UHGV virus genome: UHGV-1652597
Origin: a virus
Length of the DNA: 18,470 bases
Strand: one strand, 5' to 3'
Shown one piece after another: positions 1-18,470 of this stretch (positions within the stretch are counted from its first letter, which is position 1; every line of letters starts with the position of its first letter). The notes beneath the pieces were generated by a model. It was not told where the DNA came from, searched no databases, and saw only the letters and a program-made list of their open reading frames with translations. Made by a program: the position numbers and the translations under genes.

Positions 1-67
1 CGTGTCATAAGGCGAAGACGGCCCGTGAACGGTTTAAGTGATAATAATTCTCAACTGTCTGAGGGGA

Positions 68-127: not shown

Positions 128-166
128 ATACCCGCGAAAAATGAAATTTAACCAGGAGTGCCGCAT

Positions 167-661: not shown

Positions 662-698
662 GCCGGAAATCTTACCCCAACGTAAATGCTGCCAATTT

Positions 699-2345: not shown

Positions 2346-2356
2346 CTGAGGTAATT

Positions 2357-2539
2357 ATGATCATGCTGATTCTCGCGCCTCTGGTGGGCGTGCTGGGTGC
2401 GCTTTTGCTGGCGTATGGTGCCTGGCTGATTTATCCCCCGGCGGGGTTTGTTGTTGCCGGGGCGCTGTGCCTGTTCTGGTCGTGGCTGGTGGCGCGATAT
2501 CTCGACCGTACACAGCCGTCTGTCGGCGGAGGTAAATAG
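2357..2539 (+). CDS. Small hypothetical membrane protein (two predicted transmembrane helices)
   Basis: 60-aa ORF with two hydrophobic stretches ([23 protein letters not shown] and [16 protein letters not shown]); GAGG at 2348-2351 is 5 nt upstream of ATG 2357; stop overlaps the portal GTG start. No family recognised. Confidence 0.5.
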
Positions 2540-4408: not shown

Positions 4409-4422
4409 TCAGGAGAAATACG

Positions 4423-5628
4423 ATGGCGGTTGATATTAAAGATGTCGAACAGGTCGCGCAGGAGCTGCAGCAGAAGTTTGACGACTTCAAAGCAAAGAAC
4501 GACAAGCGCGTGGATGCGATTGAGCAGGAAAAAGGCAAGCTTGCCGGGCAGGTGGAAACCCTGAACGGGAAACTCAGCGAGCTGGAAAATCTCAAAAGCG
4601 ACCTTGAAAAAGAGCTGCTTGAGCTGAAACGTCCGGCAGGTGGAGCGCAAAATAAACTGGCCACCGAGCATAAAGAGGCGTTTGTGGGCTTTCTACGTAA
4701 AGGCCGTGAAGACGGTCTGCGCGATCTGGAGCGTAAGGCATTGCAGGTGGGTACCGATGAAGACGGTGGCTACGCCGTGCCGGAAGAACTGGATCGCAAC
4801 ATTCTTAACCTGCTGAAAGATGAAGTGGTGATGCGTCAGGAAGCCACGGTGATCACCGTTGGCGGTTCCGACTACAAAAAACTGGTGAATCTGGGCGGTA
4901 CGGCTTCCGGATGGGTGGGGGAAACGGATACGCGATCCCAGACTGCCACCTCCAGACTGGAGCTGATTGAACCTCTCATGGGGGAAATCTACGGCAACCC
5001 GCAGGCTACCCAGAAAATGCTGGACGATGCCTTCTTCAACGTGGAGGCCTGGATTAACAGCGAGCTGGCAACCGAATTTGCCGAACAGGAAGAAATTGCC
5101 TTTACCTCAGGCGATGGCACCAAGAAGCCGAAAGGGTTCCTGGCGTATGAATCCACTGATGAAACCGACAAGGTCCGGGCGTTCGGCAAACTTCAGCATA
5201 TTGTATCCGGCGAAGCGACCGCGGTGACCGCAGACGCCATTATCAAACTGATTTACACGCTGCGTAAGGCACACCGCACTGGCGCGAAGTTCATGATGAA
5301 CAACAACAGCCTGTTTGCCATCCGTCTGCTGAAAGACACCGAGGGTAACTATCTGTGGCGTCCGGGGCTGGAACTGGGGCAGCCGTCCTCTCTGGCGGGT
5401 TACGGTATCGCTGAAAACGAACAGATGCCGGATATCGCCGCTGATGCGAAAGCCATTGCATTTGGTAACTTCAAACGGGGTTACACCATCGTTGACCGTA
5501 TCGGCACCCGCATTCTGCGTGACCCGTACACCAATAAACCGTTTGTCGGTTTTTATACCACCAAGCGCACCGGCGGGATGCTGGTCGATTCGCAGGCCAT
5601 CAAACTGCTGAAGATTGCAGCGGCGTAA
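4423..5628 (+). CDS. Major capsid protein, HK97 family, with N-terminal coiled-coil (delta/scaffolding-like) domain
   Basis: 401 aa; N-terminal about 100 residues are highly charged and heptad-like (EQVAQELQQKFDDFKAKNDKRVDAIEQEKGKLAGQVETLNGKLSELENLKSDLEKELLELK), followed by a body typical of HK97-fold capsid proteins; AGGAG Shine-Dalgarno before ATG; follows the protease. Confidence 0.9.
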   Translation: MAVDIKDVEQVAQELQQKFDDFKAKNDKRVDAIEQEKGKLAGQVETLNGKLSELENLKSDLEKELLELKRPAGGAQNKLATEHKEAFVGFLRKGREDGLRDLERKALQVGTDEDGGYAVPEELDRNILNLLKDEVVMRQEATVITVGGSDYKKLVNLGGTASGWVGETDTRSQTATSRLELIEPLMGEIYGNPQATQKMLDDAFFNVEAWINSELATEFAEQEEIAFTSGDGTKKPKGFLAYESTDETDKVRAFGKLQHIVSGEATAVTADAIIKLIYTLRKAHRTGAKFMMNNNSLFAIRLLKDTEGNYLWRPGLELGQPSSLAGYGIAENEQMPDIAADAKAIAFGNFKRGYTIVDRIGTRILRDPYTNKPFVGFYTTKRTGGMLVDSQAIKLLKIAAA

Positions 5629-5634
5629 TCACTC

Positions 5635-5659
5635 AGGGGGGCGGAACCGCGCCCCCTGT
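5635..5659 (+). terminator. GC-rich hairpin immediately downstream of the major capsid gene (possible partial terminator or RNA-stabilising stem-loop)
   Basis: CAGGGGG (5635-5641) pairs with CCCCCTG (5653-5659), with further internal GC pairs around a GAAC loop; followed by TGTTCT, which is only weakly T-rich. Confidence 0.35.
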
Positions 5660-5677
5660 TCTGACGGGTGAAGAATC

Positions 5678-5878
5678 ATGATCCTGAAACAAGATCTGAA
5701 ATGGTCACCGGACGGTATGCGTGTTGAGGTCATTCGGGCCGGTGAGTATGACGACGGGGCGCTTCCTGCCCGGGTGCAGGAGATTGCACTTCAGGCCGGG
5801 TTAGCAGAGCGCGGAACCAGTGCAAAAAGCAGTAAAGCGGCAAAAGAGAAAAAAGCCACGACCAGTAAAGAGGGCTGA
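5678..5878 (+). CDS. Hypothetical small protein with Lys/Ser/Thr-rich C-terminal tail
   Basis: 66-aa ORF between the capsid and head-tail connector genes, same strand and tightly packed; no family recognised. Confidence 0.4.
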   Translation: MILKQDLKWSPDGMRVEVIRAGEYDDGALPARVQEIALQAGLAERGTSAKSSKAAKEKKATTSKEG

Positions 5879-5880
5879 GT

Positions 5881-6204
5881 ATGCTTCTGACAATGGAAGA
5901 GATTAAAGCCCAACTCCGGCTGGATGAGGATTTCGATGCTGATGACCGCCATCTGCAACTGCTGGCCTGTGCGGCGCAAAAGCGGACGGAAACGTATCTG
6001 AACCGGAAGCTCTATGCACCGGATGAAACCATTCCGGAGAGCGATCCGGACGGGCTGCACCTGCCGGATGATATTCGTCTGGGGATGCTGATGCTTATCA
6101 GCCATTTTTACGAAAACCGCTCGTCGGTTACGGAAGTGGAGAAACTCGACATGCCGCAGAGTTTTGGCTGGCTTGTCGGCCCGTACAGGTACTTTCCGCA
6201 ATGA
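5881..6204 (+). CDS. Head-tail connector protein (gp6-like)
   Basis: N-terminus MEEIKAQLRLDEDFDADDRHLQLLACAAQKRTETYLNRKL matches the characteristic pattern of gp6-like head-tail connector proteins; position right after the capsid gene. Confidence 0.75.
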   Translation: MLLTMEEIKAQLRLDEDFDADDRHLQLLACAAQKRTETYLNRKLYAPDETIPESDPDGLHLPDDIRLGMLMLISHFYENRSSVTEVEKLDMPQSFGWLVGPYRYFPQ

Positions 6205-6611
6205 AAATTCGTCAGGCGCAGACCAGCGCAACCTACATTCTGCCGGACCCCGGTGAACTGAATAAACACGTCCTGATCCGCCTGCGGGTGGATATGCCCG
6301 CGGATAACTTTGGCGTGGAGCCTCAATACCCGGTTACGTTCCGGACATGGGCGAAGGTTATCCAGACCAGTGCCACCACCTGGCAGGAAACCGCGCAGAC
6401 CGGGGACGCCATCACCCATTACATCACCATTCGTTACCGCCGGGGGATCACCGCTGATTATGAGGTGGTCTGCGGTGACAGTGTGTACCGGGTGAAACGT
6501 CAGCGTGATCTGAACGGGGCGCGGCGCTTTCTGCTGCTGGAGTGTACGGAGCTGGGCGAATGTAGGCAGAGTCACGGAGGCAGCAATGGCGACTCCCTTT
6601 TTTCACGTTGA
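6201..6611 (+). CDS. Head closure / head-tail joining protein
   Basis: 136 aa; ATGA overlap with the connector gene; internal segments (ITIRYRRGIT, RRFLLLECTEL) resemble head-tail joining (head closure) family proteins; conserved position. Confidence 0.6.
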   Translation: MKIRQAQTSATYILPDPGELNKHVLIRLRVDMPADNFGVEPQYPVTFRTWAKVIQTSATTWQETAQTGDAITHYITIRYRRGITADYEVVCGDSVYRVKRQRDLNGARRFLLLECTELGECRQSHGGSNGDSLFSR

Positions 6612-7092
6612 TGTTCAGCAGCCCGCCGAGATGCGCTTTAACCGCGCCCGTGTCCGGCGGGCGTTTGTCACGATTGGGCAGCGTCATATGCGTGATGCCC
6701 GTCGGCTGGTGATGCGCCGTGCGCGGTCGGCACCGGGTGAAAACCCCGGTTATCAGACCGGACGCCTGGCTCGTTCGATTGGTTATATGGTGCCGAGAGC
6801 CAGTAAAAAGCGAGCCGGTTTTATGACACGCATTGCCCCTAACCAGCGCAACGGGAAGGGGAACCGGATGATCTCTGGTGACTTCTATCCGGCGTTTCTG
6901 TTTTTTGGTGTCCGGGGAGGAGCAAAACGTCGTCGTAGTCATCATCGTGGTGCATCCGGTGGCAGCGGCTGGCGACTGGCTCCACGTAATAACTTCATGG
7001 TGGAAACTCTTGAAAAGAACCGCAGCTGGACACGCTATTTTCTGGCGCGGGAATTGCGTAAATCACTGAAGCCGGAGCGACGACACAGATGA
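6586..7092 (+). CDS. Putative neck / tail-completion protein (HK97 gp10-like)
   Basis: 168 aa, basic; segment PGYQTGRLARSIGY resembles the D/TG-x-L-x-x-S-I motif I associate with HK97 gp10-family tail components; position between head-closure and tail genes. Confidence 0.45.
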   Translation: MATPFFHVDVQQPAEMRFNRARVRRAFVTIGQRHMRDARRLVMRRARSAPGENPGYQTGRLARSIGYMVPRASKKRAGFMTRIAPNQRNGKGNRMISGDFYPAFLFFGVRGGAKRRRSHHRGASGGSGWRLAPRNNFMVETLEKNRSWTRYFLARELRKSLKPERRHR

Positions 7093-7649
7093 AACTGACG
7101 CCTGTTATTGCTGCGCTGCGTGCCCGCTGCCCGTATTTTGAAAACCGGGTGGCAGGCGCGGCACAGTTCAAAAATCTGCCGGAGGTCGGAAAGCTGAGAC
7201 TCCCGGCGGCGTATGTGGTACCGGGTGATGACTCTCCGGGAGAAAACAAAAGCCAGATCGACTACTGGCAGGAGCTGAAAGAGGGCTTCTCCGTGGTTGT
7301 CATACTGAGTAACGGGCGTGATGAGCGCGGTCAGTTTGCCTCGTATGATGTGGTGGACGATGTCCGGCAGATGCTCTTTAAGGCCCTGCTGGGCTGGAAC
7401 CCGGAAGCGTGCGGTAACCCGATTACCTATGACGGCGGCACGCTGCTGGATCTGAATCGTCATGAGCTGATTTATCAGTTCGATTTTTCGGTCATCAGCG
7501 AGCTGACTGAAGACGATACCCGCCAGCAGGATGATCTGAACAGTCTGGATGAACTGCAAACGCTGGCGATTGATGTTGATTATCTCGAGCCCGGTAACGG
7601 GCCTGACGGCGATATCGAACATCACACCGAAATAACCCTTCCTTCCTGA
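7089..7649 (+). CDS. Hypothetical phage neck/tail protein (positional equivalent of Mu-like gp37)
   Basis: 186 aa; ATGA overlap with the upstream gene; acidic C-terminus; call is based on synteny (two genes upstream of the tail sheath in Mu-like tail modules), not a recognised motif. Confidence 0.4.
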   Translation: MKLTPVIAALRARCPYFENRVAGAAQFKNLPEVGKLRLPAAYVVPGDDSPGENKSQIDYWQELKEGFSVVVILSNGRDERGQFASYDVVDDVRQMLFKALLGWNPEACGNPITYDGGTLLDLNRHELIYQFDFSVISELTEDDTRQQDDLNSLDELQTLAIDVDYLEPGNGPDGDIEHHTEITLPS

Positions 7650-7657
7650 GGATCCTC

Positions 7658-7825
7658 ATGTTTGTCAAACCTGTTAAAGGGCGGTCAGTTCCTGACCCTG
7701 CCCGCGGCGACCTTTTGCCCGCCGAAGGGCGAAATGTTGACGAGAACAACTACTGGCTGCGCCGTGAAGTAGCGGGTGATATCCGGCGCGTGAATAAAAA
7801 GGTGAATACCGATGACGAGCTTTAA
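7658..7825 (+). CDS. Small conserved protein preceding the tail sheath (Mu-like gp38 / DUF2635-like); not in the supplied ORF track
   Basis: Hand-translated 55-codon ORF ATG 7658 to TAA 7823-7825: MFVKPVKGRSVPDPARGDLLPAEGRNVDENNYWLRREVAGDIRRVNKKVNTDDEL. It overlaps the sheath start by 14 nt and resembles the small proteins found upstream of sheath genes in Mu-like tail clusters. Confidence 0.45.
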   Translation: MFVKPVKGRSVPDPARGDLLPAEGRNVDENNYWLRREVAGDIRRVNKKVNTDDEL

Positions 7826-9305
7826 CACCATTCCGTCGAATACGCTGGTTCCGCTGTTTTATGCGGAAATGGATAATCAGGCGGCGAATACTGCACAGGA
7901 CAGCGGAGCATCGCTGCTGATTGGTCATGCCAATAACGGTGCAGAGATTGTTGCCAACAGTCTGGTACTGATGCCGTCGGCAGACTATGCACGCCAGATT
8001 TGTGGTGCGGGAAGTCAGCTGGCGCGTATGGTCGAGGCTTATCGCCAGACCGACCCGTTTGGCGAGCTATATGTGATTGCCGTTCCTGAATCCACAGGCG
8101 CGGCGGCAACGGTTACGCTGACGGTGACCGGGGCGGCAACCGAAACCGGCACGGTGAATGTCTATGTGGGACGTACCCGCGTGCAGGCTCCGGTGACCAA
8201 CGGCGATAACGTCACGACGATTGCCAGCAGTATCAAAGATGCCATCAATGCCGTTCCGGCCCTGCCGTTTACGGCTTCATCTTCGGCAGGCGTGGTCACA
8301 CTGACCGCGCGTCATAAGGGGCTTTGCGGGAATGAAATTCCTGTCAGCCTCAATTACTACGGCTTTGGTGGGGGCGAAGTGCTGCCAGCGGGCGTACAGA
8401 TTGCCGTGGCGACGGGTACCGCCGGAACGGGTGCTCCGGTTCTCACCGGCGCGGTGGCTGCAATGGCGGATGAGCCGTTTGATTATATCGGTCTGCCGTT
8501 CAACGACACGGCCTCCGTTAACACGCTGGTGACCGAGATGAACGATACCAGCGGTCGCTGGAGCTATGCGCGTCAGCTGTATGGTCATGTGTATACGGCA
8601 AAGATCGGCACGCTGTCAGAACTGGTGACCGCAGGTGACCAGTTTAACCAGCAGCACATTACCCTGGCGGGGTACGAAAAAGAGACCCAGACGCCTGCCG
8701 ACGAACTGGCGGCAAGCCGTACCGCCCGCGCAGCGGTGTTTATTCGCAACGATCCGGCACGTCCCACGCAGACCGGTGAGCTGGTGGATATGCTGCCTGC
8801 GCCGAAGGGGAAACGGTTCACGATGACCGAACAACAGACCCTGCTGTCTCATGGCGTGGCAACGGCGTATGTCGAAAGCGGGGTACTGCGCATTCAGCGT
8901 GATGTCACCACGTACAGGAAAAACGCTTACGGGGTTGCGGATAACAGCTACCTCGACAGTGAGACACTGCATACCAGCGCGTATGTACTGCGCAAACTGA
9001 AATCCGTCATTACCAGTAAGTACGGGCGTCACAAGCTTGCCAGTGACGGTACCCGCTTTGGTCCCGGTCAGGCGATTGTCACCCCGGCGGTGATCAAAGG
9101 GGAACTGCTGGCAACCTACCGTCAGCTTGAGCGTGCGGGGATCGTGGAAAACTACGAACTGTTTAAGCAGTACCTGGTTGTGGAGCGTGATGCCAGCGAT
9201 CCGAACCGCCTGAACACGCTGTTCCCGCCTGACTATGTTAACCAGTTGCGTGTCTTTGCCGTGGTTAACCAGTTCCGTCTTCAGTATTCAGAGGAGTCTG
9301 CATAA
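7812..9305 (+). CDS. Contractile tail sheath protein (Mu gpL-like)
   Basis: 497 aa; N-terminus TSFNTIPSNTLVPLFYAEMD is typical of sheath proteins; immediately followed by a tube gene with TAATG overlap. Confidence 0.9.
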   Translation: MTSFNTIPSNTLVPLFYAEMDNQAANTAQDSGASLLIGHANNGAEIVANSLVLMPSADYARQICGAGSQLARMVEAYRQTDPFGELYVIAVPESTGAAATVTLTVTGAATETGTVNVYVGRTRVQAPVTNGDNVTTIASSIKDAINAVPALPFTASSSAGVVTLTARHKGLCGNEIPVSLNYYGFGGGEVLPAGVQIAVATGTAGTGAPVLTGAVAAMADEPFDYIGLPFNDTASVNTLVTEMNDTSGRWSYARQLYGHVYTAKIGTLSELVTAGDQFNQQHITLAGYEKETQTPADELAASRTARAAVFIRNDPARPTQTGELVDMLPAPKGKRFTMTEQQTLLSHGVATAYVESGVLRIQRDVTTYRKNAYGVADNSYLDSETLHTSAYVLRKLKSVITSKYGRHKLASDGTRFGPGQAIVTPAVIKGELLATYRQLERAGIVENYELFKQYLVVERDASDPNRLNTLFPPDYVNQLRVFAVVNQFRLQYSEESA

Positions 9306-9661
9306 TGGCCCGTATCGGGGGAACCTGTTATTTCAAAATTGACGGTCAGCAGCTATCGCTGACCGGCGGCATTGAGGTGCCCATGAACAGGACGGTCAAT
9401 GATGACATCATCGGCCTGGACGGTTCAGTGGACCGCAAGGAAACTCACCGTGCGCCCTATGTCAAAGGGACCTTCAAGGTGCCGAAGAATTTTCCGGTGA
9501 GCAAAATCACCTCGTCTGATGAGATGACCATCACTGCCGAGCTGGCGAACGGTCAGGTCTATGTACTGTCGTCTGCCTGGCTGCACGGCGAAGCGAACCA
9601 TAATGCCGAAGAAGGCACGGTTGATCTTGAGTTCCACGGTGAAGAAGGGGATTACCAGTGA
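9305..9661 (+). CDS. Tail tube protein (Mu gpM-like)
   Basis: 118-aa ORF directly after the sheath gene with overlapping stop/start; size and position typical of the tube protein of Mu-like contractile tails. Confidence 0.8.
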   Translation: MARIGGTCYFKIDGQQLSLTGGIEVPMNRTVNDDIIGLDGSVDRKETHRAPYVKGTFKVPKNFPVSKITSSDEMTITAELANGQVYVLSSAWLHGEANHNAEEGTVDLEFHGEEGDYQ

Positions 9662-9981
9662 TTGAGCTTGTACTTAAAAAACCGATCATCGCCCACAAAG
9701 AAACACTGCATGTGCTGGAAATACGTGAGCCTACGTATGACGAGATTGAGGCGCTGGGGTTCCCTTTCTCTGTTTCACCTGATGGTGGTATGAAAATGGA
9801 CAGTCAGGTAGCGCTGAAATATATCCCGCTTCTGGCCGGGATCCCGCGCTCGTCTGCAGCGCAGATGACGAAGCTGGATATTTTCAAGGCAGGCATGATT
9901 GTAATGCGTTTTTTTACCGGCTTGGAGACGGAAGAGACCTCCGGAAGCGATTCTACAATGTCGCGTGGTTCTGGAAATTAA
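9658..9981 (+). CDS. Tail assembly chaperone (gpG / P2 gpE-like)
   Basis: 107 aa, acidic; located between the tube and tape measure genes; contains an in-frame T7 run at 9909-9915 (candidate slippery site). Confidence 0.7.
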   Translation: MIELVLKKPIIAHKETLHVLEIREPTYDEIEALGFPFSVSPDGGMKMDSQVALKYIPLLAGIPRSSAAQMTKLDIFKAGMIVMRFFTGLETEETSGSDSTMSRGSGN

Positions 9982-10073
9982 ACCCCCTTGAACTTCGCCG
10001 GACGGCTATTTCCCACTTTGCTGATCTGGAGGCAGAGGCCGTCCGTATAAATGAGGAGATGAAGCATGGCTGA
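9658..10073 (+). CDS. Putative -1 frameshift product of the tail assembly chaperone (G-T / E-E' type fusion); slip at T_TTT_TTT 9909-9915
   Basis: Heptamer T TTT TTT lies in the zero frame (codons TTT 9910-9912 and TTT 9913-9915). The -1 frame is open from 9783 to TGA 10071-10073, giving about 52 extra residues (YRLGDGRDLRKRFYNVAWFWKLNPLELRRTAISHFADLEAEAVRINEEMKHG) that end just inside the tape measure start. Confidence 0.45.
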
Positions 10074-11973
10074 TAATTTTCAGCTGAAAGCCATCATCAC
10101 CGCCGTTGACAGGCTGTCCGGCCCGCTTAAAGGTATGCAGCGTCAGCTTAAGGGGTTTCAGAAAGAAGTCTCCAGCCTTGCTCTGGGCGCTGCCGGGGCG
10201 GGTACTGCAATAATGGGGGCACTGGCACTCCCTGTAAAATCAGCCATCACCCTTGAATCGAAGATGGCTGATGTCCGCAAAGTGGTAGACGGTCTGGATA
10301 CGCCGGATGCGTTTAAGGCCATGACGGAGCAGGTACGCGCTTTGTCTACTGAGCTTCCCATGTCTGCAGACGGGATCGCGGAAATTGTGGCGGCTGGCGG
10401 TCAGGCCGGGATTGCACGTGATGAACTGATGCAGTTTGCCACTGATGCGGTGAAGATGGGCGTGGCCTTTGATACCACGGCTGAAGAGTCCGGGCAGATG
10501 ATGGCCCAGTGGCGTACTGCGTTTAATATGACGCAGGATGAAGTGGCCGGGCTGGCTGACAAAATCAACTACCTTGGTAATACCGGCCCGGCGAATGCGA
10601 AGAAAATCTCCGATATTGTTACGCGTATTGGTCCTTTAGGTGGTGTTGCAGGTGTGGCTTCCGGCGAAATCGCGGCAATGGGGGCAACCATTGCCGGGAT
10701 GGGCGTGGAGTCAGAAATTGCCGCCACAGGGATCAAGAACTTCATGCTTTCCCTGACCGCGGGAAATTCCGCGACAAAATCGCAGAAACAGGCATTACGT
10801 TTTCTGCGGATCAATCCGAAGAAATTAGCTGCTGATATGCAGAAAGATGCCCGGGGAACCATGCTGTCTGTACTGGATGCGATGGCTAAAGTGCCCAAAG
10901 AAAAACAGGCAGCTGTGCTGAATGCCCTGTTCGGGAAAGAGTCTCTGGGCGCGATAGCACCTCTGCTGACTAACCTTGATTTGTTGCGTACCAACTTCAG
11001 GCGGGTTGCGGATTCCCAGCAGTATGGCAGTTCGATGCAGAAGGAATATGCTTCGAGGGCAGCGACGACGGAAAACCAGCTTTTACTTCTGCAAAATCAA
11101 CTTGATGCCATTTCTTCCACGCTGGGGGAAACGTTTCTTCCTGAGGTTAATGATGGTCTTGAAGCGGTAAAACCGCTCCTTGAGGAAGTGAGAACGTTTG
11201 TCCGTGAAAACCCGGAGCTCGTTAAGACCATTGCTAAAATCGGTCTGGCCTTACTGACGGTGGGAGCCGCTGCAGGCTCTTTGTCCAGAATTATGAAAGT
11301 TCTCGGCGGTGTGATGAATATGACGCCTGCTAAGGGGCTGATTGCTCTTCTGGTTGGTGGCGCTTACCTCATTATTGATAACTGGGAAACCGTAGGTCCT
11401 GTCATAAAAAAAGTCTGGCACGTGGTGGATGAAACGGCGCAGGCGATGGGGGGATGGGAAACTGTTCTGAAAGCGATTGCCCTGTTTATGGCAACCAAAT
11501 GGGTTGCTGACGTTACCAAATCCATTACCGCAGTGACCAGAGAGATGCGTACGCTGGGGAAGGTATCGGCAGAAACGGGATTGATGGGGAAAGGCCGCGG
11601 CTTTATCGGGAAGGCCGGGGTATATGGTTTTCTGGGAACCCTGATGTATGAGCCGGTTAAAGATACTCTGGAAAGTGTTGTTCCTGAAGATACGGTTAAC
11701 TGGCTGGATAATAAAGGGCTGTTTCTGGCTTCAGACTGGACGCCTTTTTTTGATCGTAAAGAGTACGAGCAGTATCAGGCCAGCCTGAGTCAGTACAAAC
11801 CCAATGTTCCGCTGCTGAATCCATCTTCTTCCATGACACAGCACAGCGAGCTGAAAGTCACGTTCGAGAATGCTCCGCCAGGTATGAAGATAATTGATGT
11901 ACCGGGCAAAGCCGATCCCCTGATGAAAATCACGCACGATGTGGGGTATTCCCCTTTTCGTTTTCCACGATAA
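10066..11973 (+). CDS. Tail tape measure protein
   Basis: 635 aa; Ala/Gly-rich N-terminal helical region and hydrophobic central segments; GAGGAG Shine-Dalgarno 7 nt upstream of ATG; positioned after the chaperone as in all long-tailed phages. Confidence 0.9.
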   Translation: MADNFQLKAIITAVDRLSGPLKGMQRQLKGFQKEVSSLALGAAGAGTAIMGALALPVKSAITLESKMADVRKVVDGLDTPDAFKAMTEQVRALSTELPMSADGIAEIVAAGGQAGIARDELMQFATDAVKMGVAFDTTAEESGQMMAQWRTAFNMTQDEVAGLADKINYLGNTGPANAKKISDIVTRIGPLGGVAGVASGEIAAMGATIAGMGVESEIAATGIKNFMLSLTAGNSATKSQKQALRFLRINPKKLAADMQKDARGTMLSVLDAMAKVPKEKQAAVLNALFGKESLGAIAPLLTNLDLLRTNFRRVADSQQYGSSMQKEYASRAATTENQLLLLQNQLDAISSTLGETFLPEVNDGLEAVKPLLEEVRTFVRENPELVKTIAKIGLALLTVGAAAGSLSRIMKVLGGVMNMTPAKGLIALLVGGAYLIIDNWETVGPVIKKVWHVVDETAQAMGGWETVLKAIALFMATKWVADVTKSITAVTREMRTLGKVSAETGLMGKGRGFIGKAGVYGFLGTLMYEPVKDTLESVVPEDTVNWLDNKGLFLASDWTPFFDRKEYEQYQASLSQYKPNVPLLNPSSSMTQHSELKVTFENAPPGMKIIDVPGKADPLMKITHDVGYSPFRFPR

Positions 11974-11997
11974 CGCAGTCCTTTTTGAGGTCAGTCT

Positions 11998-13374
11998 ATG
12001 GATTTATCCTCATTTCCCACCCGACCTTCATTACTTTCGTCGTCTTCAGGCTGGCGTGACAGACTTCAGGACGCGTCATTTCGCGGCGTGCCGTTTAAGG
12101 TTGAAGAAGAAAGTGCGGGAACCGGTCGCCGTGTGGAAACACATGAATACCCGAACCGCGACAAACCCTATACCGAAGACCTGGGGAAAATCACTTTTCG
12201 CCCGTCCATCACGGCTTATGTGGTGGGAGATGACTGCTTTGACCAGCGCGATCGCCTGATTGAAGCGCTGAATAAACCCGGTCCCGGCACGCTTGTCCAC
12301 CCGACATATGGTGAGCTGAAAGTCTGTGTTGACGGGGAAGTTCGGGTCAGCACATCGAAAAGTGAAGGGCGTATTGTCCGCTTTGACCTGAAGTTTGTCG
12401 AAGCAGGAGAACTCTCTTACCCCACATCAGGTGCGGCGACGGCGCAGACGCTGATGTCATCCTGTTCTGCACTGGATGACTGCATCAGTGACAGCTTCAG
12501 CGGTTTCAGTATCGATGGTGTGGCGGATTTCGTGCAGAACGACGTTATCGGTAATGCCAGCATAATGCTGGGGTATGTTTCTGATGCGATGAAAGTGGTG
12601 GATTCTGCCGTATCGGATGCCGCCAGGCTGTTGCAGGGGGATATCTCGGTACTTCTGCCGCCGCCATCGTCAGGCAAAAATTTCGTTGAGCAGGTGCAGA
12701 AAATGTGGCGTACCGGGAAACGCCTTTATGGTAACGCCAGCGACCTGGTCACCATGATCAAAACGCTTTCCGGTGTCAGCCTCGGCAGCGATCTGCAACC
12801 GCGCGGCGTCTGGAAAACGGACAGTAAAACCACCGCCACGGCGACGCAGCAGCGTAACGTGGTTGCCAGCACCCTTCGTACGACCGCAATCAGCGAAGCG
12901 GCGTATGCCGTCACCCGATTGCCTGCGCCAATAACTTCCGCGGTGATGCAGAATTCCGCAGTGGGGCAGGCAACAACACCCGCGCAGAGCACTGGCTGGC
13001 CTTCCGTCACGCATCCGGCACTGAACAATGCACCGGCGGTGAAAAACACGGTTGACCTGCCGACGTGGGAAGAACTGACTGACATTCGCGACACACTGAA
13101 TACGGCAATTGATAAGGAGTTGTCCCGTACAACCAGTGATGCGCTGTTTCTGGCGCTGCGCCGGGTGAAAGCAGATCTGAATGCGGATATCAACACGCGC
13201 CTTGAACAGTCTGCACGGATCATTCAGCGCACACCGGATGAGGTTTTACCCGCGCTGGTGCTGGCGGCGACCTGGTTTGATAACGCGGCGCGTGACGCGG
13301 ACATTATCCGGCGTAATGCCATTACGCATCCCGGCTTTGTGCCGGTGATCCCTCTGAAGGTGCCAGTGCAATGA
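11998..13374 (+). CDS. DNA circulation protein (Mu gpN-like) / baseplate hub component
   Basis: N-terminal segment WRDRLQDASFRGVPFKVEEESAGTGRRVETHEYPNRDKPYTEDLG matches the conserved N-terminus of Mu N-family proteins; follows the tape measure. Confidence 0.85.
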   Translation: MDLSSFPTRPSLLSSSSGWRDRLQDASFRGVPFKVEEESAGTGRRVETHEYPNRDKPYTEDLGKITFRPSITAYVVGDDCFDQRDRLIEALNKPGPGTLVHPTYGELKVCVDGEVRVSTSKSEGRIVRFDLKFVEAGELSYPTSGAATAQTLMSSCSALDDCISDSFSGFSIDGVADFVQNDVIGNASIMLGYVSDAMKVVDSAVSDAARLLQGDISVLLPPPSSGKNFVEQVQKMWRTGKRLYGNASDLVTMIKTLSGVSLGSDLQPRGVWKTDSKTTATATQQRNVVASTLRTTAISEAAYAVTRLPAPITSAVMQNSAVGQATTPAQSTGWPSVTHPALNNAPAVKNTVDLPTWEELTDIRDTLNTAIDKELSRTTSDALFLALRRVKADLNADINTRLEQSARIIQRTPDEVLPALVLAATWFDNAARDADIIRRNAITHPGFVPVIPLKVPVQ

Positions 13375-14450
13375 ACGACAATGTCACGCTACGGGTAAAT
13401 GGCCGGGAGTGGAATGGCTGGACATCGGTGCGCATCGGTGCCGGTATTGAACGGCTGGCGCGGGATTTCAGTGTGGAGATCACTCGCCAGTGGCCGGGAG
13501 ATGAGGGTATCACCACGCTTCAGCCGCGCATTAAAAACGGTTCAAAAGTGGAAGTGCTGATTGGTGATGAGCTGGTGATTACCGGCTGGGTGGAGGCGAC
13601 TCCCGTTCGTTACGATGCCCGTTCGGTCAGTACCGGTATTGCCGGACGTAGTCTGACGGCTGACCTGATTGACTGTGCAGCCGAACCGACACAGTTTAAC
13701 GGACGCTCGCTGGTGCAGATTGCGCAGGCGCTTGCTGCGCCTTTCGGCATTGAGGTGGTGAACAGCGGTGCGCCGTCGGGTGTTATTCCTGATGTTCAGC
13801 CTGATCACGGTGAAACGGTGATTGAGGTAATCAACAAAATACTCGGTCAGCAGCAGGCGCTGGCTTACGACGACCCGCACGGCAGGCTGGTGATTGGCGG
13901 TATTGGCTCAACGCGGGCACATACCGCGCTGGTACTTGGGGAAAACATCCTTTCCTGTGATACGGAGAAGAGTATCCGGGAGCGGTTTTCTGTTTACCAG
14001 GTGGCGGGGCAGCGTGCCGGAAACGACGATGATTTCGGTGAGGCCACCACCACCGCGCTGCGGGCCCGCACAGAGGACGCATTTATTGCCCGTTACCGTC
14101 CGATGTATATCAGGCAGACAGGGCAGGCCACGGGGGCAGGTTGTATTGCGCGTGCTGACTTTGAAGCCCGACAACGGGCGGCGCGGACGGATGAAACCAC
14201 CTATGTGGTGCAGGGCTGGCGACAGGGTAACGGTACGCTGTGGCAGCCCAACCAGCGGGTGATTGTCTTCGATCCGGTCTGTGGTTTCGACAATACCGAA
14301 CTGCTTGTCTCGGAAGTCACGTTTACTCAGGACCAGAACGGCACTCTGACGGAAATCCGTGTCGGCCCACCTGATGCTTATCTGCCTGAACCCGAAGCCC
14401 CCGGCGCGCGGAAAAAGAAAAAAGCCAGAGTACAGGAGGACCCGTTCTGA
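13371..14450 (+). CDS. Tail/baseplate protein (Mu gpP-like, late control D-like family)
   Basis: 359 aa; ATGA overlap with the upstream gene; position after the N-like gene as in Mu-like tails; N-terminal VTLRVNGREWNGW pattern. Confidence 0.7.
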   Translation: MNDNVTLRVNGREWNGWTSVRIGAGIERLARDFSVEITRQWPGDEGITTLQPRIKNGSKVEVLIGDELVITGWVEATPVRYDARSVSTGIAGRSLTADLIDCAAEPTQFNGRSLVQIAQALAAPFGIEVVNSGAPSGVIPDVQPDHGETVIEVINKILGQQQALAYDDPHGRLVIGGIGSTRAHTALVLGENILSCDTEKSIRERFSVYQVAGQRAGNDDDFGEATTTALRARTEDAFIARYRPMYIRQTGQATGAGCIARADFEARQRAARTDETTYVVQGWRQGNGTLWQPNQRVIVFDPVCGFDNTELLVSEVTFTQDQNGTLTEIRVGPPDAYLPEPEAPGARKKKKARVQEDPF

Positions 14451-14998
14451 TGAGGACGATTGAAGCCATGCAGCGACAACTTCTCGGCCTGATTGGGCGG
14501 GCAGTGGTGAAAAGCATCAGTGCCGCCACGAAATGTCAGACCGTGGATGTGTCCCTGATTGCCGGTGAACCCAAAGCCGGGGTTGAACATCTTGAACCCT
14601 ACGGTTTTACCGCAAGGGCAAACAGCGGTGCGGAAGCGGTGGTGTTGTTTCCGGATGGCGACCGTTCTCATGCGGTGGTTGTTACGGTGTCGGACCGGCG
14701 CTACCGCCTGAAAGGGCTGCAGACGGGTGAGGTGGCTGTCTATGACGATCAGGGGCAGTCTGTGACGCTGACCCGGGAGGGGATCGTGGTGGACGGTGCA
14801 GGTAAAACGATCACGTTTCGCAATGCACCTGAAGCACGTTTTGAAATGGACCTGGAAGTGACAGGACAGGTGAAAGACCTGTGCGACTCCGGCGGCACCA
14901 CCATGTCAGCGATGCGGCTTGCCTATAACGGGCATCGTCACAGAGAGAACGGTCAGGGCAGTAACACCGACAAACCGGATAAAGCGATGGAGGCATGA
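14450..14998 (+). CDS. Baseplate assembly protein V (central spike, gpV-like / Mu gp45-like)
   Basis: 182 aa; N-terminal region IGRAVVKSISAATKCQTVDVSLIAGEPKAGVEHLEPYGFTARANSGAEAVVLFPDGDRSHAVVV is typical of gpV spike OB-fold domains. Confidence 0.8.
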   Translation: MRTIEAMQRQLLGLIGRAVVKSISAATKCQTVDVSLIAGEPKAGVEHLEPYGFTARANSGAEAVVLFPDGDRSHAVVVTVSDRRYRLKGLQTGEVAVYDDQGQSVTLTREGIVVDGAGKTITFRNAPEARFEMDLEVTGQVKDLCDSGGTTMSAMRLAYNGHRHRENGQGSNTDKPDKAMEA

Positions 14999-15423
14999 TG
15001 GAACTGTGGCTGACGGTGAACGGTAAACGCACCTGCGCCAGCGCACCGCTGGATCCGCTGACCCGCTCCGTGGTGATTTCCCTGTTTACCTGGCGGCGGG
15101 CGGAGCCTGATGACAACGCCGACGTCCCGATGGGATGGTGGGGGGATACCTGGCCTGCGGTACAGAATGACCGTTACGGCTCCCGACTGTGGCTGCTTCA
15201 GCGCAGCAAACTGACCAATCAGCTGGTGCAGACGGTAAGGGGGTATATCCGCGAATGCCTGCAATGGATGATTGATGATGGCGTGGTGTCCCGTATTGAT
15301 CTGGATATCCGCCGCACCGGGATTAATGAACTGGGTAACAGTATCACTCTCTGGCGTCGTGACGGACCGGTAATGATTTCTTTTGATGATCTGTGGAGTG
15401 CGATAACGCATGGCGGACAGTGA
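14995..15423 (+). CDS. Baseplate protein, GP46 family (gpW-like)
   Basis: 142 aa; ATGA overlap; size and position between V-like and J-like genes match the Mu-like gp46 family. Confidence 0.7.
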   Translation: MMELWLTVNGKRTCASAPLDPLTRSVVISLFTWRRAEPDDNADVPMGWWGDTWPAVQNDRYGSRLWLLQRSKLTNQLVQTVRGYIRECLQWMIDDGVVSRIDLDIRRTGINELGNSITLWRRDGPVMISFDDLWSAITHGGQ

Positions 15424-16468
15424 ATTTCAGCGCCCGACGCTGGCAGAAAATATCAGTATGCTCCGTAACGATTTATTCGCCAGGCTGGACGTCAGCGACA
15501 CGCTCCGGCGCATGGATGAAGACGTGCGGGCAAAGGTGTATGCGGCGGCGCTGCATACGGTTTACGGGTACATCGATTATCTGGCAATGAACATGCTGCC
15601 TGACCTGTGCGATGAGTCCTGGCTGGCGCGACATGCTGCGATGAAACGGTGTCCGCGCAAGGGGGCCACGGCTGCCAGCGGGTATATGCGCTGGGAAGGT
15701 GTCAGCGATGGCCTGAAGGTGACTGCCGGGAGCGTGATTCAGCGCGATGACCTGGTTCAGTACACGGCAACTGCCGATGCAACCAGCTCCGGTGGTGTCC
15801 TGCGTGTGCCGATCGCCTGCTCAAATGCAGGCGCGGTCGGTAACACTGACGACGGTACGGCATTAATCCTGGTCACGCCGGTGAATGGTCTGCCGTCTTC
15901 CGGTGTGGCTGACACCCTGACAGGCGGATTTGATGCTGAAGATCTGGAAACGTGGCGCGCCCGCGTCATTGAGCGGTATTACTGGACGCCTCAGGGCGGG
16001 GCTGACGGGGACTATGTCGTCTGGGCTAAAGAAGTGCCCGGCATTACCCGCGCATGGACATACCGACACTGGATGGGAACGGGGACTGTCGGTGTGATGA
16101 TTGCCAGCAGTGACCTGATTAATCCCATTCCGGAAGAGTCAACGGAAACGTCGGCAAGACAACATATCGAGCCACTGGCCCCGGTGGCAGGCTCTGATTT
16201 GTATGTATTCAGGCCGGTGGCGCATAAAGTGGATTTTCATATCCGCGTGACGCCGGACACACCGGAAATACGGGCTGCCATCACCGCCGAGTTGCGTTCG
16301 TTCCTGCTGCGTGATGGTTATCCGCAGGGAGAACTGAAGGTGTCACGTATCAGTGAAGCGATTTCCGGTGCGAACGGGGAATACAGCCATCAGTTGCTTG
16401 CCCCGGCGGACAATATCTCCATTGCGAAAAATGAACTGGCGGTTCTGGGGACGATTTCATGGACGTGA
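15410..16468 (+). CDS. Baseplate J-like protein (Mu gp47-like)
   Basis: 352 aa; position and size typical of the baseplate J wedge protein; overlaps flanking genes. Confidence 0.85.
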
Positions 16469-17043
16469 CAAACGATGATTACATCCGTCTGTTGTCGGCA
16501 CTGTTGCCCCCTGGTCCGGCGTGGTCAGCCAGCGATCCGGCGATTGCCGGTGCAGCACCGTCATTAACCCGCGTTCATCAGCGTGCGGATGCCCTGATGC
16601 GGGAGCTGGATCCGCGCACCACCACTGAACTGATAAACCGCTGGGAGCGTCTGTGCGGTCTGCCGGATGAATGTATTCCGGCGGTAACGCAGACCCTTCG
16701 CCAGCGTCAGCAACGGCTGGATGCGAAGGTTAACCTGGCGGGCGGCATCAACGAGGATTTTTATCTTGCACAGCTTGCTGCCCTGGGCAGACCAGATGCC
16801 ACCATCACGCGATACGACAAAAGCACGTTCACCTGCTCATCGGCCTGTACTGACGCGGTGAATGCGCCGGAATGGCGGTATTACTGGCAGATCAACATGC
16901 CAGCCGACACCAACACCACCTGGATGACATGTGGCGATCCCTGTGATTCCGCACTGCGTATCTGGGGCGACACCGTTGTCGAGTGTGTGCTTAACAAACT
17001 CTGCCCGTCGCATACCTACATAATTTTTAAATATCCGGAGTAA
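16459..17043 (+). CDS. Tail protein, YmfQ / DUF2313 family (Mu gp48-like, P2 gpI-like)
   Basis: 194 aa; N-terminus [19 protein letters not shown] and segment [13 protein letters not shown] are characteristic of the YmfQ/gp48 family; precedes the tail fiber gene. Confidence 0.75.
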
Positions 17044-17046
17044 TCC

Positions 17047-17838
17047 ATGCATCGTATAGACACGAAAACCGCGCAGAAGGATAAGTTCGGCGCGGGTAAG
17101 AACGGTTTTACCCGTGGTAACCCCCAGACCGGCACACCTGCCACCGATCTGGATGATGACTACTTTGACATGTTGCAGGAGGAGCTTTGCAGCGTGGTGG
17201 AGGCCTCCGGTGCCAGCCTGGAGAAGGGGCGGCATGACCAGCTGCTTACCGCGCTTCGTGCGCTGCTGTTAAGCCGCAAGAATCCGTTTGGCGATATCAA
17301 ATCGGATGGCACGGTGAAAACGGCTCTCGAAAACCTTGGTTTGGGAGAAGGCTCTGCATTACCGGTTGGGGTGCCTGTTCCGTGGCCTTCAGCCACTCCG
17401 CCAACAGGCTGGCTGAAATGCAACGGTGCCGCTTTTTCTGCTGAAGAATACCCGGAACTGGCAAAGGCTTATCCGACAAATAAATTGCCTGATTTACGTG
17501 GTGAGTTTATTCGTGGCTGGGATGACGGGCGTGGTATTGATGCTGTACGTGCCTTGCTAAGTCTTCAGAATGGAGGAGTGGAATCACACACCCACCAAGG
17601 GCAGCTCTTCAGAGTTAGTGATTATCGTACAAAAGAAATACCAGCATCAGAAGTTATGGGAAGAGGATATATTGCAAGCCTGACGCCGGGTGCTGATAGC
17701 CCACTTGATTTTGATGATTATTCTGTATCTTCTAATCCAAATGGATATTTTGTCGGGAATCAGAGAACAACAGCATATGGGATAAATGAAACCCGTCCAC
17801 GGAATATTGCATTTAACTATATCGTGAGGGCTGCATAA
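17047..17838 (+). CDS. Tail fiber protein with C-terminal tail-collar-type domain
   Basis: 263 aa; N-terminus ([46 protein letters not shown]) resembles the conserved baseplate-attachment region of fibers; C-terminal part ([21 protein letters not shown] ... [12 protein letters not shown] ... ETRPRN) matches the tail-collar fold signature; followed by a tail fiber assembly gene. Confidence 0.8.
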
Positions 17839-18440
17839 TGGATAACGCTGTATTAAATAGCGAGTTTATTGCTACAAAGGCGGGGAATATTACCGTCTAT
17901 AACTATGATGGCGAAACACGGGAATATATTTCCACATCAACTGAATATCTTGCCGTTGGTGTCGGTATCCCTGCATATTCCTGTTTAGATGCCCCTGGCA
18001 CATACAAAGCTGGTTATGCAATCTGCCGATCTGTAGATTTTAACTCATGGGAATATGTGCCAGACCATCGCGGTGAAATCGTCTTTAGCACCGAAACAGG
18101 AGAATCAAAAGAAATCACAGTTTCGGGTGATTACCCTGATAATACAACCACTATCGCCCCTTTATCTCCATACGATAAATGGGATGGTGAGAAATGGGTG
18201 ACCGATACTGAGGCACAGCATAGCGCCGCAGTAGACGCGGCAGAAGCACAGCGCCAGTCACTGATTGATGCTGCAATGGCTTCCATCAGTCTGATTCAGC
18301 TGAAATTAAAGGCCGGACGGAAACTGACGCAGGCAGAAACAACCCAGCTTAACGCTGTGCTGGATTACATTGACGCGGTGACGGCAACAGATACCAGCAC
18401 CGCGCCGAATGTCATCTGGCCTGAACTGCCGGAGGCGTAG
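17838..18440 (+). CDS. Tail fiber assembly protein (Tfa chaperone)
   Basis: 200 aa; TAATG overlap with the fiber gene; C-terminal region (KWDGEKWVTDTEAQHSAAVDAAEAQRQSLIDAAMASISLIQLKL ... DTSTAPNVIWPELPEA) is characteristic of enterobacterial Tfa proteins. Confidence 0.9.
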   Translation: MDNAVLNSEFIATKAGNITVYNYDGETREYISTSTEYLAVGVGIPAYSCLDAPGTYKAGYAICRSVDFNSWEYVPDHRGEIVFSTETGESKEITVSGDYPDNTTTIAPLSPYDKWDGEKWVTDTEAQHSAAVDAAEAQRQSLIDAAMASISLIQLKLKAGRKLTQAETTQLNAVLDYIDAVTATDTSTAPNVIWPELPEA

Positions 18441-18470
18441 GCCATTCAATATCTGGAGCACTGGAGGGAT

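Follow-up and report, generated by a model that had tools for sequence, protein, structure and literature searches.

A prophage sequence that very probably ends inside an invertible host-range segment of the e14 P type

The DNA analysed here, a stretch of 18,470 nucleotides from the virus genome UHGV-1652597 (hereafter the window), very probably ends inside an invertible host-range segment of the type known as the P segment of e14, in an E. coli prophage of the SfV/e14 type with a Mu-like tail. The G segment of Mu and the C segment of P1 are counterparts of the e14 P segment. The features that bear on this reading are the following.

16459..17043, plus strand: ymfQ / Mu gp48-like baseplate gene (Pfam Phage_Mu_Gp48, E = 8.6e-26), immediately upstream of the fibre gene; constant backbone, G+C-rich
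17047..17838, plus strand: tail fibre open reading frame of 263 amino acids (Pfam Collar at residues 108-155, E = 1.2e-15)
17047..17335, plus strand: constant (Sc-like) part of the fibre, outside the presumed invertible segment; GC3 0.65
17324..17349, strand not applicable: left 26-bp crossover site of the pix/gix/hix type, CTCTCGAAAACC TT GGTTTGGGAGAA
17350..17541, plus strand: collar-domain stretch opening the presumed invertible segment, a conserved portion of the variable C-terminus; GC3 0.40
17461..18180, strand not applicable: maximum-likelihood low-G+C block; G+C 0.428 against 0.557 outside
17542..17787, plus strand: putative hypervariable receptor-binding tip (fibre residues 166-247), the part lowest in G+C; GC3 0.17-0.30
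17788..17838, plus strand: last residues of the fibre, conserved; homology to pro483, PSUO2 and K-12 is back at 17785-17788
17838..18440, plus strand: tfa, a tail fibre assembly chaperone of the TfaE type, 200 amino acids (Pfam Caudo_TAP at residues 78-199, E = 1.8e-31)
17838..18195, plus strand: N-terminal domain of Tfa (fibre-binding according to the literature); G+C 0.427, GC3 0.35
18196..18440, plus strand: conserved C-terminal (oligomerisation) domain of Tfa; G+C 0.558, GC3 0.575, the level of the backbone
18412..18470, minus strand: 3' end of the convergent gene tfa' (last 18 codons, translated PSSAPDIEWPTPPAVQAR, and the stop codon), the remainder lying beyond the window

The baseplate gene is 96.5% identical to ymfQ of the K-12 element e14, with a GC3 of 0.63. 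Downstream of it, the assignment of a fibre gene followed by tfa, made in the earlier note from the letters alone, is borne out by Pfam: the fibre frame carries a Collar domain (PF07484, 57.6 bits for a cut-off of 24) and the frame directly behind it a Caudo_TAP domain (PF02413, 109.4 bits for a cut-off of 22.1). The stop codon of the first overlaps the start codon of the second (TAATG). In its present orientation the fibre frame is intact, a constant N-terminal part being joined to a variable C-terminal part of the collar type, and an exact look-up found the identical protein indexed in 80 blocks of a public assembly collection. The intact fibre of close relatives is labelled as a truncated pseudogene in RefSeq records.

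The left crossover site lies inside the fibre frame, where it encodes ..ALENLGLGE.., with its central dinucleotide at 17336-17337. It occurs once in the window, and shuffling gave no match in 200 trials. It overlaps TTGGTTTGGGAGAAGG (17336-17351), the inverted repeat that was experimentally shown to bound the inversion of the e14 P segment (PMC12529663). All 13 related loci with this backbone have kept the left site, and in 11 of them an inverted partner (TTCTCCCAAACCAA...) is found about 1.8-1.9 kb downstream, the two without it being SfV and pro483.

The continuation of the window can be followed on a twin contig, L010, which is 99.96% identical to positions 11047-18470 (7,424 bp, up to the window end). 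Only three positions differ, one of them altering a residue of Tfa (S95 in one, P in the other); this is why an exact-protein look-up of the 200-residue Tfa returned no record. Beyond the window the twin carries Tfa', an inverted alternative fibre tip, the right site and a stump of the pin gene, and from the near-identity of the two contigs we infer that the DNA past 18470 holds the right site, second cassette and invertase gene in the same form. The 3' ends of tfa' and tfa overlap by 29 bp, and PSSAPDIEWPTPPAVQAR is the C-terminus of a 147-residue Caudo_TAP protein encoded at 7366-7809 on the minus strand of the twin. The right site, at 8151-8176 of that contig, reads TTCTCCCAAACC AA CATTTATGAAAA (also written TTCTCCCAAACCAACATTTATGAAAA); its central AA is the dinucleotide of the left site on the minus strand, and right sites are present in 10 further related loci too. 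In the relatives, neither a search with the left site at three mismatches nor a generic inverted-repeat search detected it, because the outer half-sites differ too much; it was located by reading the sequence and with a regular expression for the core motif.

This layout recurs among the relatives. Each of the eight listed contigs with an identical fibre has an inverted Caudo_TAP gene and a resolvase-family frame, and six of the eight an inverted fibre-tip frame. When L001 and L002 are counted with them, an inverted tfa and a resolvase-family frame are present in all, and the inverted fibre tip in 8 of 10. Among complete E. coli genomes, the two closest show the full set: inverted tfa, inverted fibre tip and full-length invertase gene. 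An invertase and an alternative fibre/Tfa pair had been expected downstream of the window: both are found in relatives, and the pair (inverted tfa' and fibre tip) in the twin as well, but the invertase gene of the twin is a stump of about 42 codons.

These observations suggest the following scheme. The fibre gene is split at 17324-17349, its constant, G+C-rich N-terminal part upstream serving to join the fibre to the baseplate, and downstream of the site there very probably follows a segment of about 1.87 kb, lower in G+C, with two convergent cassettes. The first, presumably expressed in the window, would supply a collar/T4-gp37-like fibre C-terminus and the 200-residue Tfa. The second, inverted, would supply a gp53-like fibre C-terminus and the 147-residue Tfa', of which the window holds the last 18 codons and the stop codon. 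A serine invertase of the Pin/Gin family would cut both sites at the central AA/TT and swap strands, so that the segment flips; this cleavage chemistry is presumed. The flip would fuse the constant part to the other tip, the predicted junction being in frame and the predicted fibre 216 residues long, with the matching chaperone behind it.

The e14 P segment of E. coli K-12 has the same backbone as the window (96.5% identity over ymfQ and the fibre N-terminus) and an identical left 26-bp site; the right site is of the type seen in the twin, and the two convergent fibre-tip/tfa cassettes are arranged as in the window and its twin. Its gene order is ymfQ-stfP-tfaP-(tfaE-stfE')-pinE-mcrA, where stfE' and tfaE, inverted, are 96% and 92% identical to the window. 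The collar/TfaE cassette stands in the expressed position in the window and in the silent position in the MG1655 reference. A length of 1,797 bp is reported for the e14 segment; that of the twin measures 1,875 bp. Across the tip (17542-17787) nucleotide homology to stfE' of K-12 is absent, and the second cassette of the twin is unlike stfP/tfaP of e14, except in the 3' part of tfa'. Whereas e14 is a remnant, the morphogenetic module of the window's prophage is apparently complete, and whereas pinE of e14 is intact and followed by mcrA, pin of the twin is truncated and followed by GmrSD.

The G segment of Mu (Sc/Sv-U, U'-Sv', gin) and the C segment of P1 (cin) follow the same logic: a site within the fibre gene, a constant N-terminal part and two C-terminal parts, each with its cognate Tfa. 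Mu also shares the serine-invertase type, the intact enzyme of the relatives matching Mu Gin (3UJ3) at E = 4e-93, and the Mu-like baseplate genes gp45, gp46, gp47 and gp48. In contrast, Mu S has 504 residues and the window fibre 263; only the N-terminal part aligns, and weakly (5YVQ, E = 0.039), and the fibre tip of the window is collar/T4-gp37-like, unlike that of Mu S. Tfa itself had no match among PDB sequences even at E = 1, TfaMu (5YVQ) included. With the tip of T4 gp37 (2XGF) and with short fibres of the gp12 type, the window fibre shares the collar domain, an HxH motif of the metal-binding type and the C-terminal NIAFNYIVR. Residues 90-203 match 2XGF at E = 2.5e-18, the fibre also matches 9CUY at E = 2.2e-17, and in the alignment with 2XGF, which includes NIAFNYIVR, 'shth' stands opposite 'hshs'. 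The HxH motif is H181-T-H183 (17587-17595), and the motif at the fibre C-terminus (16 residues) is common to the C-terminus of T4 gp37 (11 residues). The stretch between these two motifs is much shorter in the window fibre than in gp37, and the chaperone is Tfa (Caudo_TAP) in the window but gp38/gp57A in T4.

Two further groups share one side of the crossover site each. In SfV, SfI, SfII and SfIV the tail and baseplate backbone is 96-97% identical to the window through the site, and homology ends at 17350; SfV has neither a second cassette nor an invertase gene; its one fibre tip is fixed, and behind its only tfa come the gtr genes for O-antigen modification. The P2-like phage pro483 and its relatives carry the same collar-type cassette, a 200-residue Tfa (89% protein identity) and an TTCTCCCAAACCAACGTTTATGAAAA site beside an invertase gene. 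Their tail backbone is another one (the constant part of the P2 H-type fibre), the cassette is silent and the hypervariable tip is different.

The state of the invertase gene varies among the relatives. It is full-length in L001, L002, L003, L005, L007, L008 and L009, the L005 protein having both Resolvase and HTH_7 domains. In L010, L004, L015 and L016 the pin frame is homologous for about 42 codons only, most of the catalytic domain and the entire HTH domain being absent; truncated invertase genes are also found in L006 and L012. In the twin, GmrSD, a type IV restriction gene, comes after the stump and occupies a slot for defence genes, and this stump junction occurs in 286 of 5,426 E. coli genomes. 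Judging from the twin, the invertase gene of the window's own lineage very probably breaks off after codon 41-42, with GmrSD behind it, and the element is probably unable to flip itself.

Both orientations of the segment nevertheless exist in nature. E. coli ET201 (L016) and L010 differ only in that the 1,875 bp from one site to the other are inverted: the two flanks run collinear with 99.8% identity, the inverted 1,875 bp agree at 99.9%, the breakpoints fall exactly at the sites, and the same stump and junction go with opposite orientations of the segment. YZ22PE67 shows the same pattern of a shared stump and an opposite orientation. The invertase gene neighbouring a second copy of the prophage region in ET201 was checked and found to be the same stump, not an intact gene. 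The collar-type cassette stands in the 'off' position beside pin in 829 genomes, and in 467 genomes the whole of 16400-18470 is covered, the cassette being fused to the constant part in the arrangement of the window. Since a genome with the same stump carries the 1,875-bp segment flipped, inversion probably continues by means of an invertase acting in trans. Indeed, PinE, PinQ and PinR each invert the e14 P segment in trans (PMC12529663). In the window's prophage, flipping would need Pin-family invertases of other resident prophages, and we tentatively suggest that the segment is an 'orphan' switch, in which the invertase gene has been replaced by GmrSD and the segment flips under the Pin-family invertases of other prophages.

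Alternatively, the switch might be a frozen relic: with the invertase gene lost to the insertion of GmrSD or to replacement by it, the collar-type fibre would be permanently expressed and the cassette would be a fixed host-range module, as in SfV, which retains the left site without invertase or second cassette. The pin stump of the four contigs and its junction in the 286 genomes are consistent with this idea, as are the truncated genes of L006 and L012; with a stump for an invertase gene, the present orientation may indeed be fixed unless another invertase acts. We nevertheless regard this course of events as unlikely, since ET201 (and YZ22PE67) and L010 have the same stump yet opposite orientations with breakpoints at the sites, and since PinQ and PinR inverted the e14 P segment in trans in experiments (PMC12529663). 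A third point comes from analogy with Hin, where a Fis-bound enhancer is part of the 5' end of the invertase gene; it measures 65 bp and sits some 100 bp away from hix (PMC3798978). The equivalent position in L010 would be about 8263-8330, inside the retained stump (which ends at about 8357); on this purely positional argument, inversion may depend on Fis here too and the 42-codon stump may survive as the carrier of a cis-acting enhancer.

The segment could also be a switch domesticated by the host, which would keep it for superinfection exclusion and not for the host range of the prophage. This has been reported for the homologous segment of K-12 e14, where a chimeric Stf protein produced through inversion by PinQ prevents T2 from adsorbing (PMC12529663), and the loss of the element's own invertase gene, with a type IV restriction gene adjoining in a defence-gene slot, would agree with it. 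It is improbable for the window's prophage, in which, unlike in e14, the terminase, portal, capsid, sheath, tube, tape measure and baseplate frames are all intact and apparently complete; the fibre and Tfa frames are intact as well and appear to be translationally coupled, which would fit a functional phage that switches its adsorption.

The base composition follows the segment. The earlier note had seen by eye a drop in G+C from about 17500 through the N-terminal two-thirds of Tfa and a return to the G+C-rich norm in the Tfa C-terminus, and computation upholds this description. Between 17500 and 18200 the G+C content is 0.434, against 0.557 at 1-17499 and 0.552 at 18201-18470. In 300-bp windows it is 0.39-0.40 at 17600-18000 and 0.557 ± 0.03 elsewhere, the minimum being 0.39 at 17606-17905 (z = -5.3 relative to all 300-bp windows lying wholly before 17350, whose own minimum is 0.467). 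On another scan grid than that used for the block listed above, the maximum-likelihood segment is 17606-18195, with a G+C of 0.412. The log-likelihood ratio is 23.4, and none of 300 shuffles in which 60-bp blocks were permuted reached it (maximum 12.9). The recovery comes at about 18196, that is, at codon 120 of the 200 of Tfa, which is close to two-thirds, and G+C is 0.558 at 18196-18440.

At third codon positions the change begins earlier, at about 17340: GC3 is 0.65 at 17047-17349, 0.40 at 17350-17500 and 0.29 at 17503-17838, then 0.35 at 17838-18200 and 0.575 at 18201-18440 within tfa. The drop therefore coincides with the crossover site; at 17350-17500 it is masked in total G+C because the second positions of the Gly/Pro/Ala-rich collar domain have a G+C of 0.60. 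On this GC3 result, amino-acid composition as the sole cause of the dip was rejected. AT-rich tail-fibre tips and Tfa N-domains are common in many phages, and lowered G+C alone is no proof of foreign origin. In every relative checked, G+C is below the backbone level over the invertible segment as a whole, in pin and in the defence genes that follow, and K-12 e14 shows the same contrast (0.456 against 0.567); the low G+C is therefore a stable family trait and no evidence of recent import.

That same family-wide trait, together with somewhat lowered first and second codon positions in the tip and the Tfa N-terminus (GC12 0.38-0.50), would also fit a dip without horizontal exchange, arising as a side effect of what the protein does, or of relaxed codon adaptation, in a receptor-binding region that evolves fast. 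This is highly improbable, since the largest change is synonymous (GC3 from 0.65 to 0.29) and starts at the recombination site and at no protein-domain border, homology independently places joints of the mosaic at 17331-17350, near 17541 and near 17787, and the same segment is found on three unrelated tail backbones.

The joints can be read from the alignments. The constant part of the fibre is 96-97% identical to SfV orf21 and to the 5' part of K-12 e14 stfP, with homology stopping at 17350/17351, and SfV, SfI, SfII and SfIV cease to match the window after 17350; the P2-like phages and e14 stfE/tfaE match it from 17331 on. At least three tail backbones carry the same segment. Over 17350..17541 the window shows 93.6% identity with pro483, 95% with E. 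coli PSUO2 and, read in inverted orientation, 96.2% with K-12 stfE'. From 17542 to 17787 no nucleotide homology to K-12 e14, pro483 or PSUO2 was found, although both flanks align at 90-96%, and the tip proteins of these cassettes are barely alignable. Behind the tip, tfa is 92.3% identical in nucleotides to K-12 tfaE, and its protein is 89-92% identical to the Tfa of PSUO2 and pro483.

Within Tfa, the two domains differ in their distribution. The N-domain, found in 1,831 genomes, mainly at 80-95% identity, has no counterpart in the alternative Tfa' (28% identity overall, only the C-terminal part aligning). The C-domain, which occurs at 3,632 places in 2,465 genomes, mainly at 90-99% identity, is the only part that can be aligned with Tfa' and with the Tfa of SfV. 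The tip allele of the window is far rarer, being present in 140 of the 5,426 E. coli genomes, where the region as a whole is found in 2,883. According to North et al. (2019), as summarised in PMC9608196, the N-domain of Tfa binds the fibre and the C-domain is conserved. The conservation pattern seen here fits such a modular build, with a variable N-domain and a conserved C-domain, the fibre-binding role being taken from that literature. The AT-rich block would then be the part that determines specificity, consisting of the hypervariable tip, the presumed seat of receptor specificity, and the Tfa N-domain, which binds the fibre tip in Mu; the C-domain, normal in G+C, would be a generic oligomerisation module common to many Tfa proteins.

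The view that the AT-richer stretch is an exchangeable host-range module is thus sustained by the homology joints and by the three or more backbones, but its start has to be moved from 17500 to the crossover site at 17324-17349, about 150 bp upstream, and it is not a single module, for the tip at 17542-17787 swaps independently of the Tfa N-domain. A single co-inherited cassette of tip and Tfa N-domain was rejected, the N-domain being about 90% conserved where the tips cannot be aligned. As judged from these alignments, exchange takes place at three nested levels: that of the invertible segment in its entirety, that of the hypervariable tip (17542-17787) and that of the Tfa domains. The segment would move between phage backbones with the conserved site and the collar region as the joint, and the tip would be exchanged as a smaller unit.

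The system is already known from Mu G, P1 C and e14 P. A textbook mechanism has been found where it was expected, and the main value of the analysis is therefore annotation, in that the true boundary of the module is set at the crossover site at 17324-17349. In addition, the element's own invertase gene is probably dead and a restriction gene stands in its place, while the segment has evidently flipped all the same, in agreement with the recent report that e14 is inverted by Pin invertases from other cryptic prophages. If the segment is indeed an orphan switch, the adsorption specificity of one prophage, or a host superinfection exclusion of the StfE2 type, would be governed by another mobile element, and the replacement of pin by a defence gene, for which 286 of 5,426 E. 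coli genomes give examples, would be an exchange that recurs and is tolerated.

The fall in base composition that the earlier note had placed by eye at about 17500 is borne out both by sliding G+C and by a likelihood scan. G+C is 0.434 over 17500-18200, compared to 0.557 over 1-17499 and 0.552 over 18201-18470. The best low-G+C segment is 17461-18180 (0.428); scanning with a finer grid gives 17606-18195 (0.412). The log-likelihood ratio reaches 23.4, versus a maximum of 12.9 in 300 shuffles of 60-bp blocks. The lowest 300-bp window (0.39, 17606-17905) lies at z = -5.3 relative to the 300-bp windows lying wholly before 17350, whose floor is 0.467. The second lowest stretch of the window, 10761-12040, covers the end of the tape-measure gene on its 3' side and is much weaker (0.496; log-likelihood ratio 10.5 versus 23.4). 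The return to the G+C-rich norm in the Tfa C-terminus was also correctly noticed, recovery occurring at Tfa codon 120, and the fibre and Tfa genes are what they were said to be.

Features of the window, with G+C at third codon positions (GC3)
17047-17838: tail fibre ORF, 263 aa, Pfam Collar
17838-18440: Tfa ORF, 200 aa, Pfam Caudo_TAP, its start overlapping the fibre stop codon
17324-17349: left crossover site, 26 bp, CTCTCGAAAACC-TT-GGTTTGGGAGAA, within the fibre ORF
17047-17349: fibre, GC3 0.65
17350-17500: GC3 0.40
17503-17838: GC3 0.29
17838-18200: tfa, GC3 0.35
18201-18440: GC3 0.575

The GC3 values show that the synonymous-site shift starts about 150 bp ahead of the visible dip; between 17350 and 17500 it is masked in total G+C by a Gly/Pro/Ala-rich collar domain (second-position G+C 0.60). 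The step coincides with the 26-bp sequence at 17324-17349, which occurs once in the window and in none of 200 shuffles. This sequence overlaps TTGGTTTGGGAGAAGG (17336-17351), mapped in 2025 as the inverted repeat at the ends of the 1,797-bp inversion of the P segment, the invertible tail-fibre/tfa segment of the K-12 prophage e14 (PMC12529663). The boundary of the module is therefore this site and not position 17500, as had been proposed.

The probable continuation past the window end can be read from L010 (Logan SRR27315114_88), a contig 99.96% identical to window 11047-18470 up to the final base.

Features of the contig L010
minus strand: tfa', the alternative chaperone gene, 147 aa; its last 18 codons and stop are window 18412-18470
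minus strand: 131-aa ORF with a marginal Gp53-like_C match
8151-8176: right crossover site, TTCTCCCAAACC-AA-CATTTATGAAAA
beyond the right site: pin (invertase) ORF
8231-8357: pin stump, the same in L004 (a related locus), E. coli YZ22PE67 and E. coli ET201
8456-10345, minus strand: GmrSD gene, 629 aa, full-length match to a PADLOC type IV restriction model

The inner half-sites of the two crossover sites are perfect inverted repeats and their central dinucleotides agree; when inversion is simulated, the constant, N-terminal part of the fibre becomes joined to the alternative tip with the reading frame kept, and the resulting fibre has 216 aa. Both sites are so arranged in 11 of the related loci examined, K-12 e14 included; SfV has the left site only and pro483 a right-type site only. 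The identical 263-aa fibre is present in 80 indexed blocks of a public assembly collection. Among the matches listed, the Tfa gene is followed in 8 of 8 by a Caudo_TAP gene in inverted orientation and by a resolvase-family ORF, with an inverted fibre-tip ORF called between them in 6 of 8. In the complete E. coli genomes nearest to the window (97%), tfa is inverted, as is a gp53-like fragment, and the invertase gene is full length; in one of them (L001) this gene bears the annotation pinE. The intact invertase of one relative matches Mu Gin (E = 4e-93). Thus the predicted inverted fibre/tfa pair is indeed there in these relatives, and the predicted invertase gene as well, except that in L010 it is truncated. 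The convergent tfa and tfa' share 29 bp at their 3' ends (18412-18440), and a ..WP..P.. motif ends both, on opposite strands. In L001 (6645-7166) and L002 (6648-7169), RefSeq calls the fibre gene 'incomplete, missing C-terminus', yet its ORF of 263 aa is intact there, with only 2-3 substitutions relative to the window. The label probably arises as an artefact of annotating fibre genes that are split and invertible.

Comparison with other phages places mosaic joints at the left site. SfV, SfI, SfII and SfIV are 96-97% identical to the window up to 17350, and the match of P2-like phages (pro483 and others) begins at 17325-17331. K-12 e14 is collinear over 15681-17351 (96.5%; jayE, ymfQ and the 5' part of stfP), then matches in inverted orientation at 17331-17541 (96.2%) and 17788-18465 (92.3%), that is, stfE' and tfaE. 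The window is therefore an element of the e14/SfV type whose P segment lies the other way round from that of the MG1655 reference. The low G+C of the segment relative to the backbone, 0.47 versus 0.57 in L010 and 0.456 versus 0.567 in e14, makes the contrast a family trait. Within the cassette being expressed, the AT-rich block is the portion that sets specificity: a T4 gp37-like tip (match to 2XGF, E = 2.5e-18, with an HxH motif) and the Tfa N-domain. In the literature (PMC9608196), the N-domain of Mu Tfa is described as binding the fibre tip, and the Tfa C-domain, G+C-normal here, as a generic oligomerisation module.

The idea of an exchanged host-range cassette agrees with these joints; a single co-inherited block is excluded. 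At the nucleotide level the tip (17542-17787, fibre aa 166-247) lacks homology to K-12, pro483 and E. coli PSUO2, while its flanks and the entire Tfa are 90-96% identical to them.

Matches among 5,426 complete E. coli genomes
17542-17787: tip allele, 140
Tfa N-part: 1,831, mostly at 80-95% identity
Tfa C-part: 2,465, mostly at 90-99% identity
16400-18470: whole region, 2,883

The block therefore comprises two or more units that differ in their history, the tip being a separately exchanged sub-module. The segment as a whole is common to three tail backbones: the Mu-like SfV/e14 type, that of the P2-like phage pro483 and that of a prophage whose baseplate is of the DUF2612 type. In YZ22PE67 (L015, 335-2996) the segment, pin stump and GmrSD gene sit on the DUF2612-type backbone, and in pro483 (L011) the segment sits on a P2-like tail. 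Since both backbones are unrelated to the SfV/e14 type, the segment moves between phage types.

In L010, pin is homologous to intact pin for about 42 codons only, followed by unrelated sequence and then GmrSD. The breakpoint is identical in L004, YZ22PE67 and ET201, and 286 of the 5,426 complete E. coli genomes contain the stump-GmrSD junction. The invertase gene of the window's own element is probably a stump too, and the element probably unable to make an invertase. Nevertheless, ET201 (NZ_CP100994.1, 2642-4515) and L010 (6290-8164) differ by a clean inversion of 1,875 bp at 99.9% identity, with flanks collinear at 99.8% on both sides. As both carry the dead gene, the simplest reading is that inversion came after the truncation, with the enzyme acting in trans, a plausible route given that the e14 P segment is inverted by PinE, PinQ and PinR alike (PMC12529663). 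In the Hin system the enhancer spans 65 bp at a distance of about 100 bp from hix (PMC3798978); by analogy, the equivalent position would fall within the retained stump. The prophage region is present twice in ET201, the copies lying about 40 kb from each other and each bearing frameshift annotations; a duplication or a problem of assembly may be responsible.

Downstream of pin (seen in L001, L002, L003, L010, L012 and L014), the defence-type gene differs from one relative to the next (McrA in K-12 e14; elsewhere GmrSD, the LEM-3-like GIY-YIG PD-T4-3, DUF4145, or AbiTii plus DUF6650), and this end of the prophage resembles a hotspot for defence genes. Another site, 11974-11997, between the tape measure (10066-11973) and DNA-circulation (11998-13374) genes, is a moron-type insertion hotspot: empty in the window, it holds unrelated small genes in relatives (for a hypothetical protein of 162-170 aa, for a tRNA_anti-like protein encoded on the other strand, or for a bPH_1 protein).

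The fibre gene is thus split by a Din-type site, with two convergent tip/chaperone cassettes, and both orientations are found in nature. Judging from what is established for Gin, Hin and Pin, four serine invertase subunits would assemble as a tetramer with Fis at the enhancer and cut at the central dinucleotide, after which the strands would rotate; inversion would exchange the tip and Tfa placed behind the constant part. The element is the e14 P segment, of the Mu G/P1 C kind. The window itself contains the site in the fibre ORF and, of the two cassettes, the first and the beginning of the second, and L010 supplies the remaining features save for the truncated invertase gene. The system is known and little here is new; what is mildly interesting is an orphaned switch, evidently still flipped, beside a defence-gene slot.
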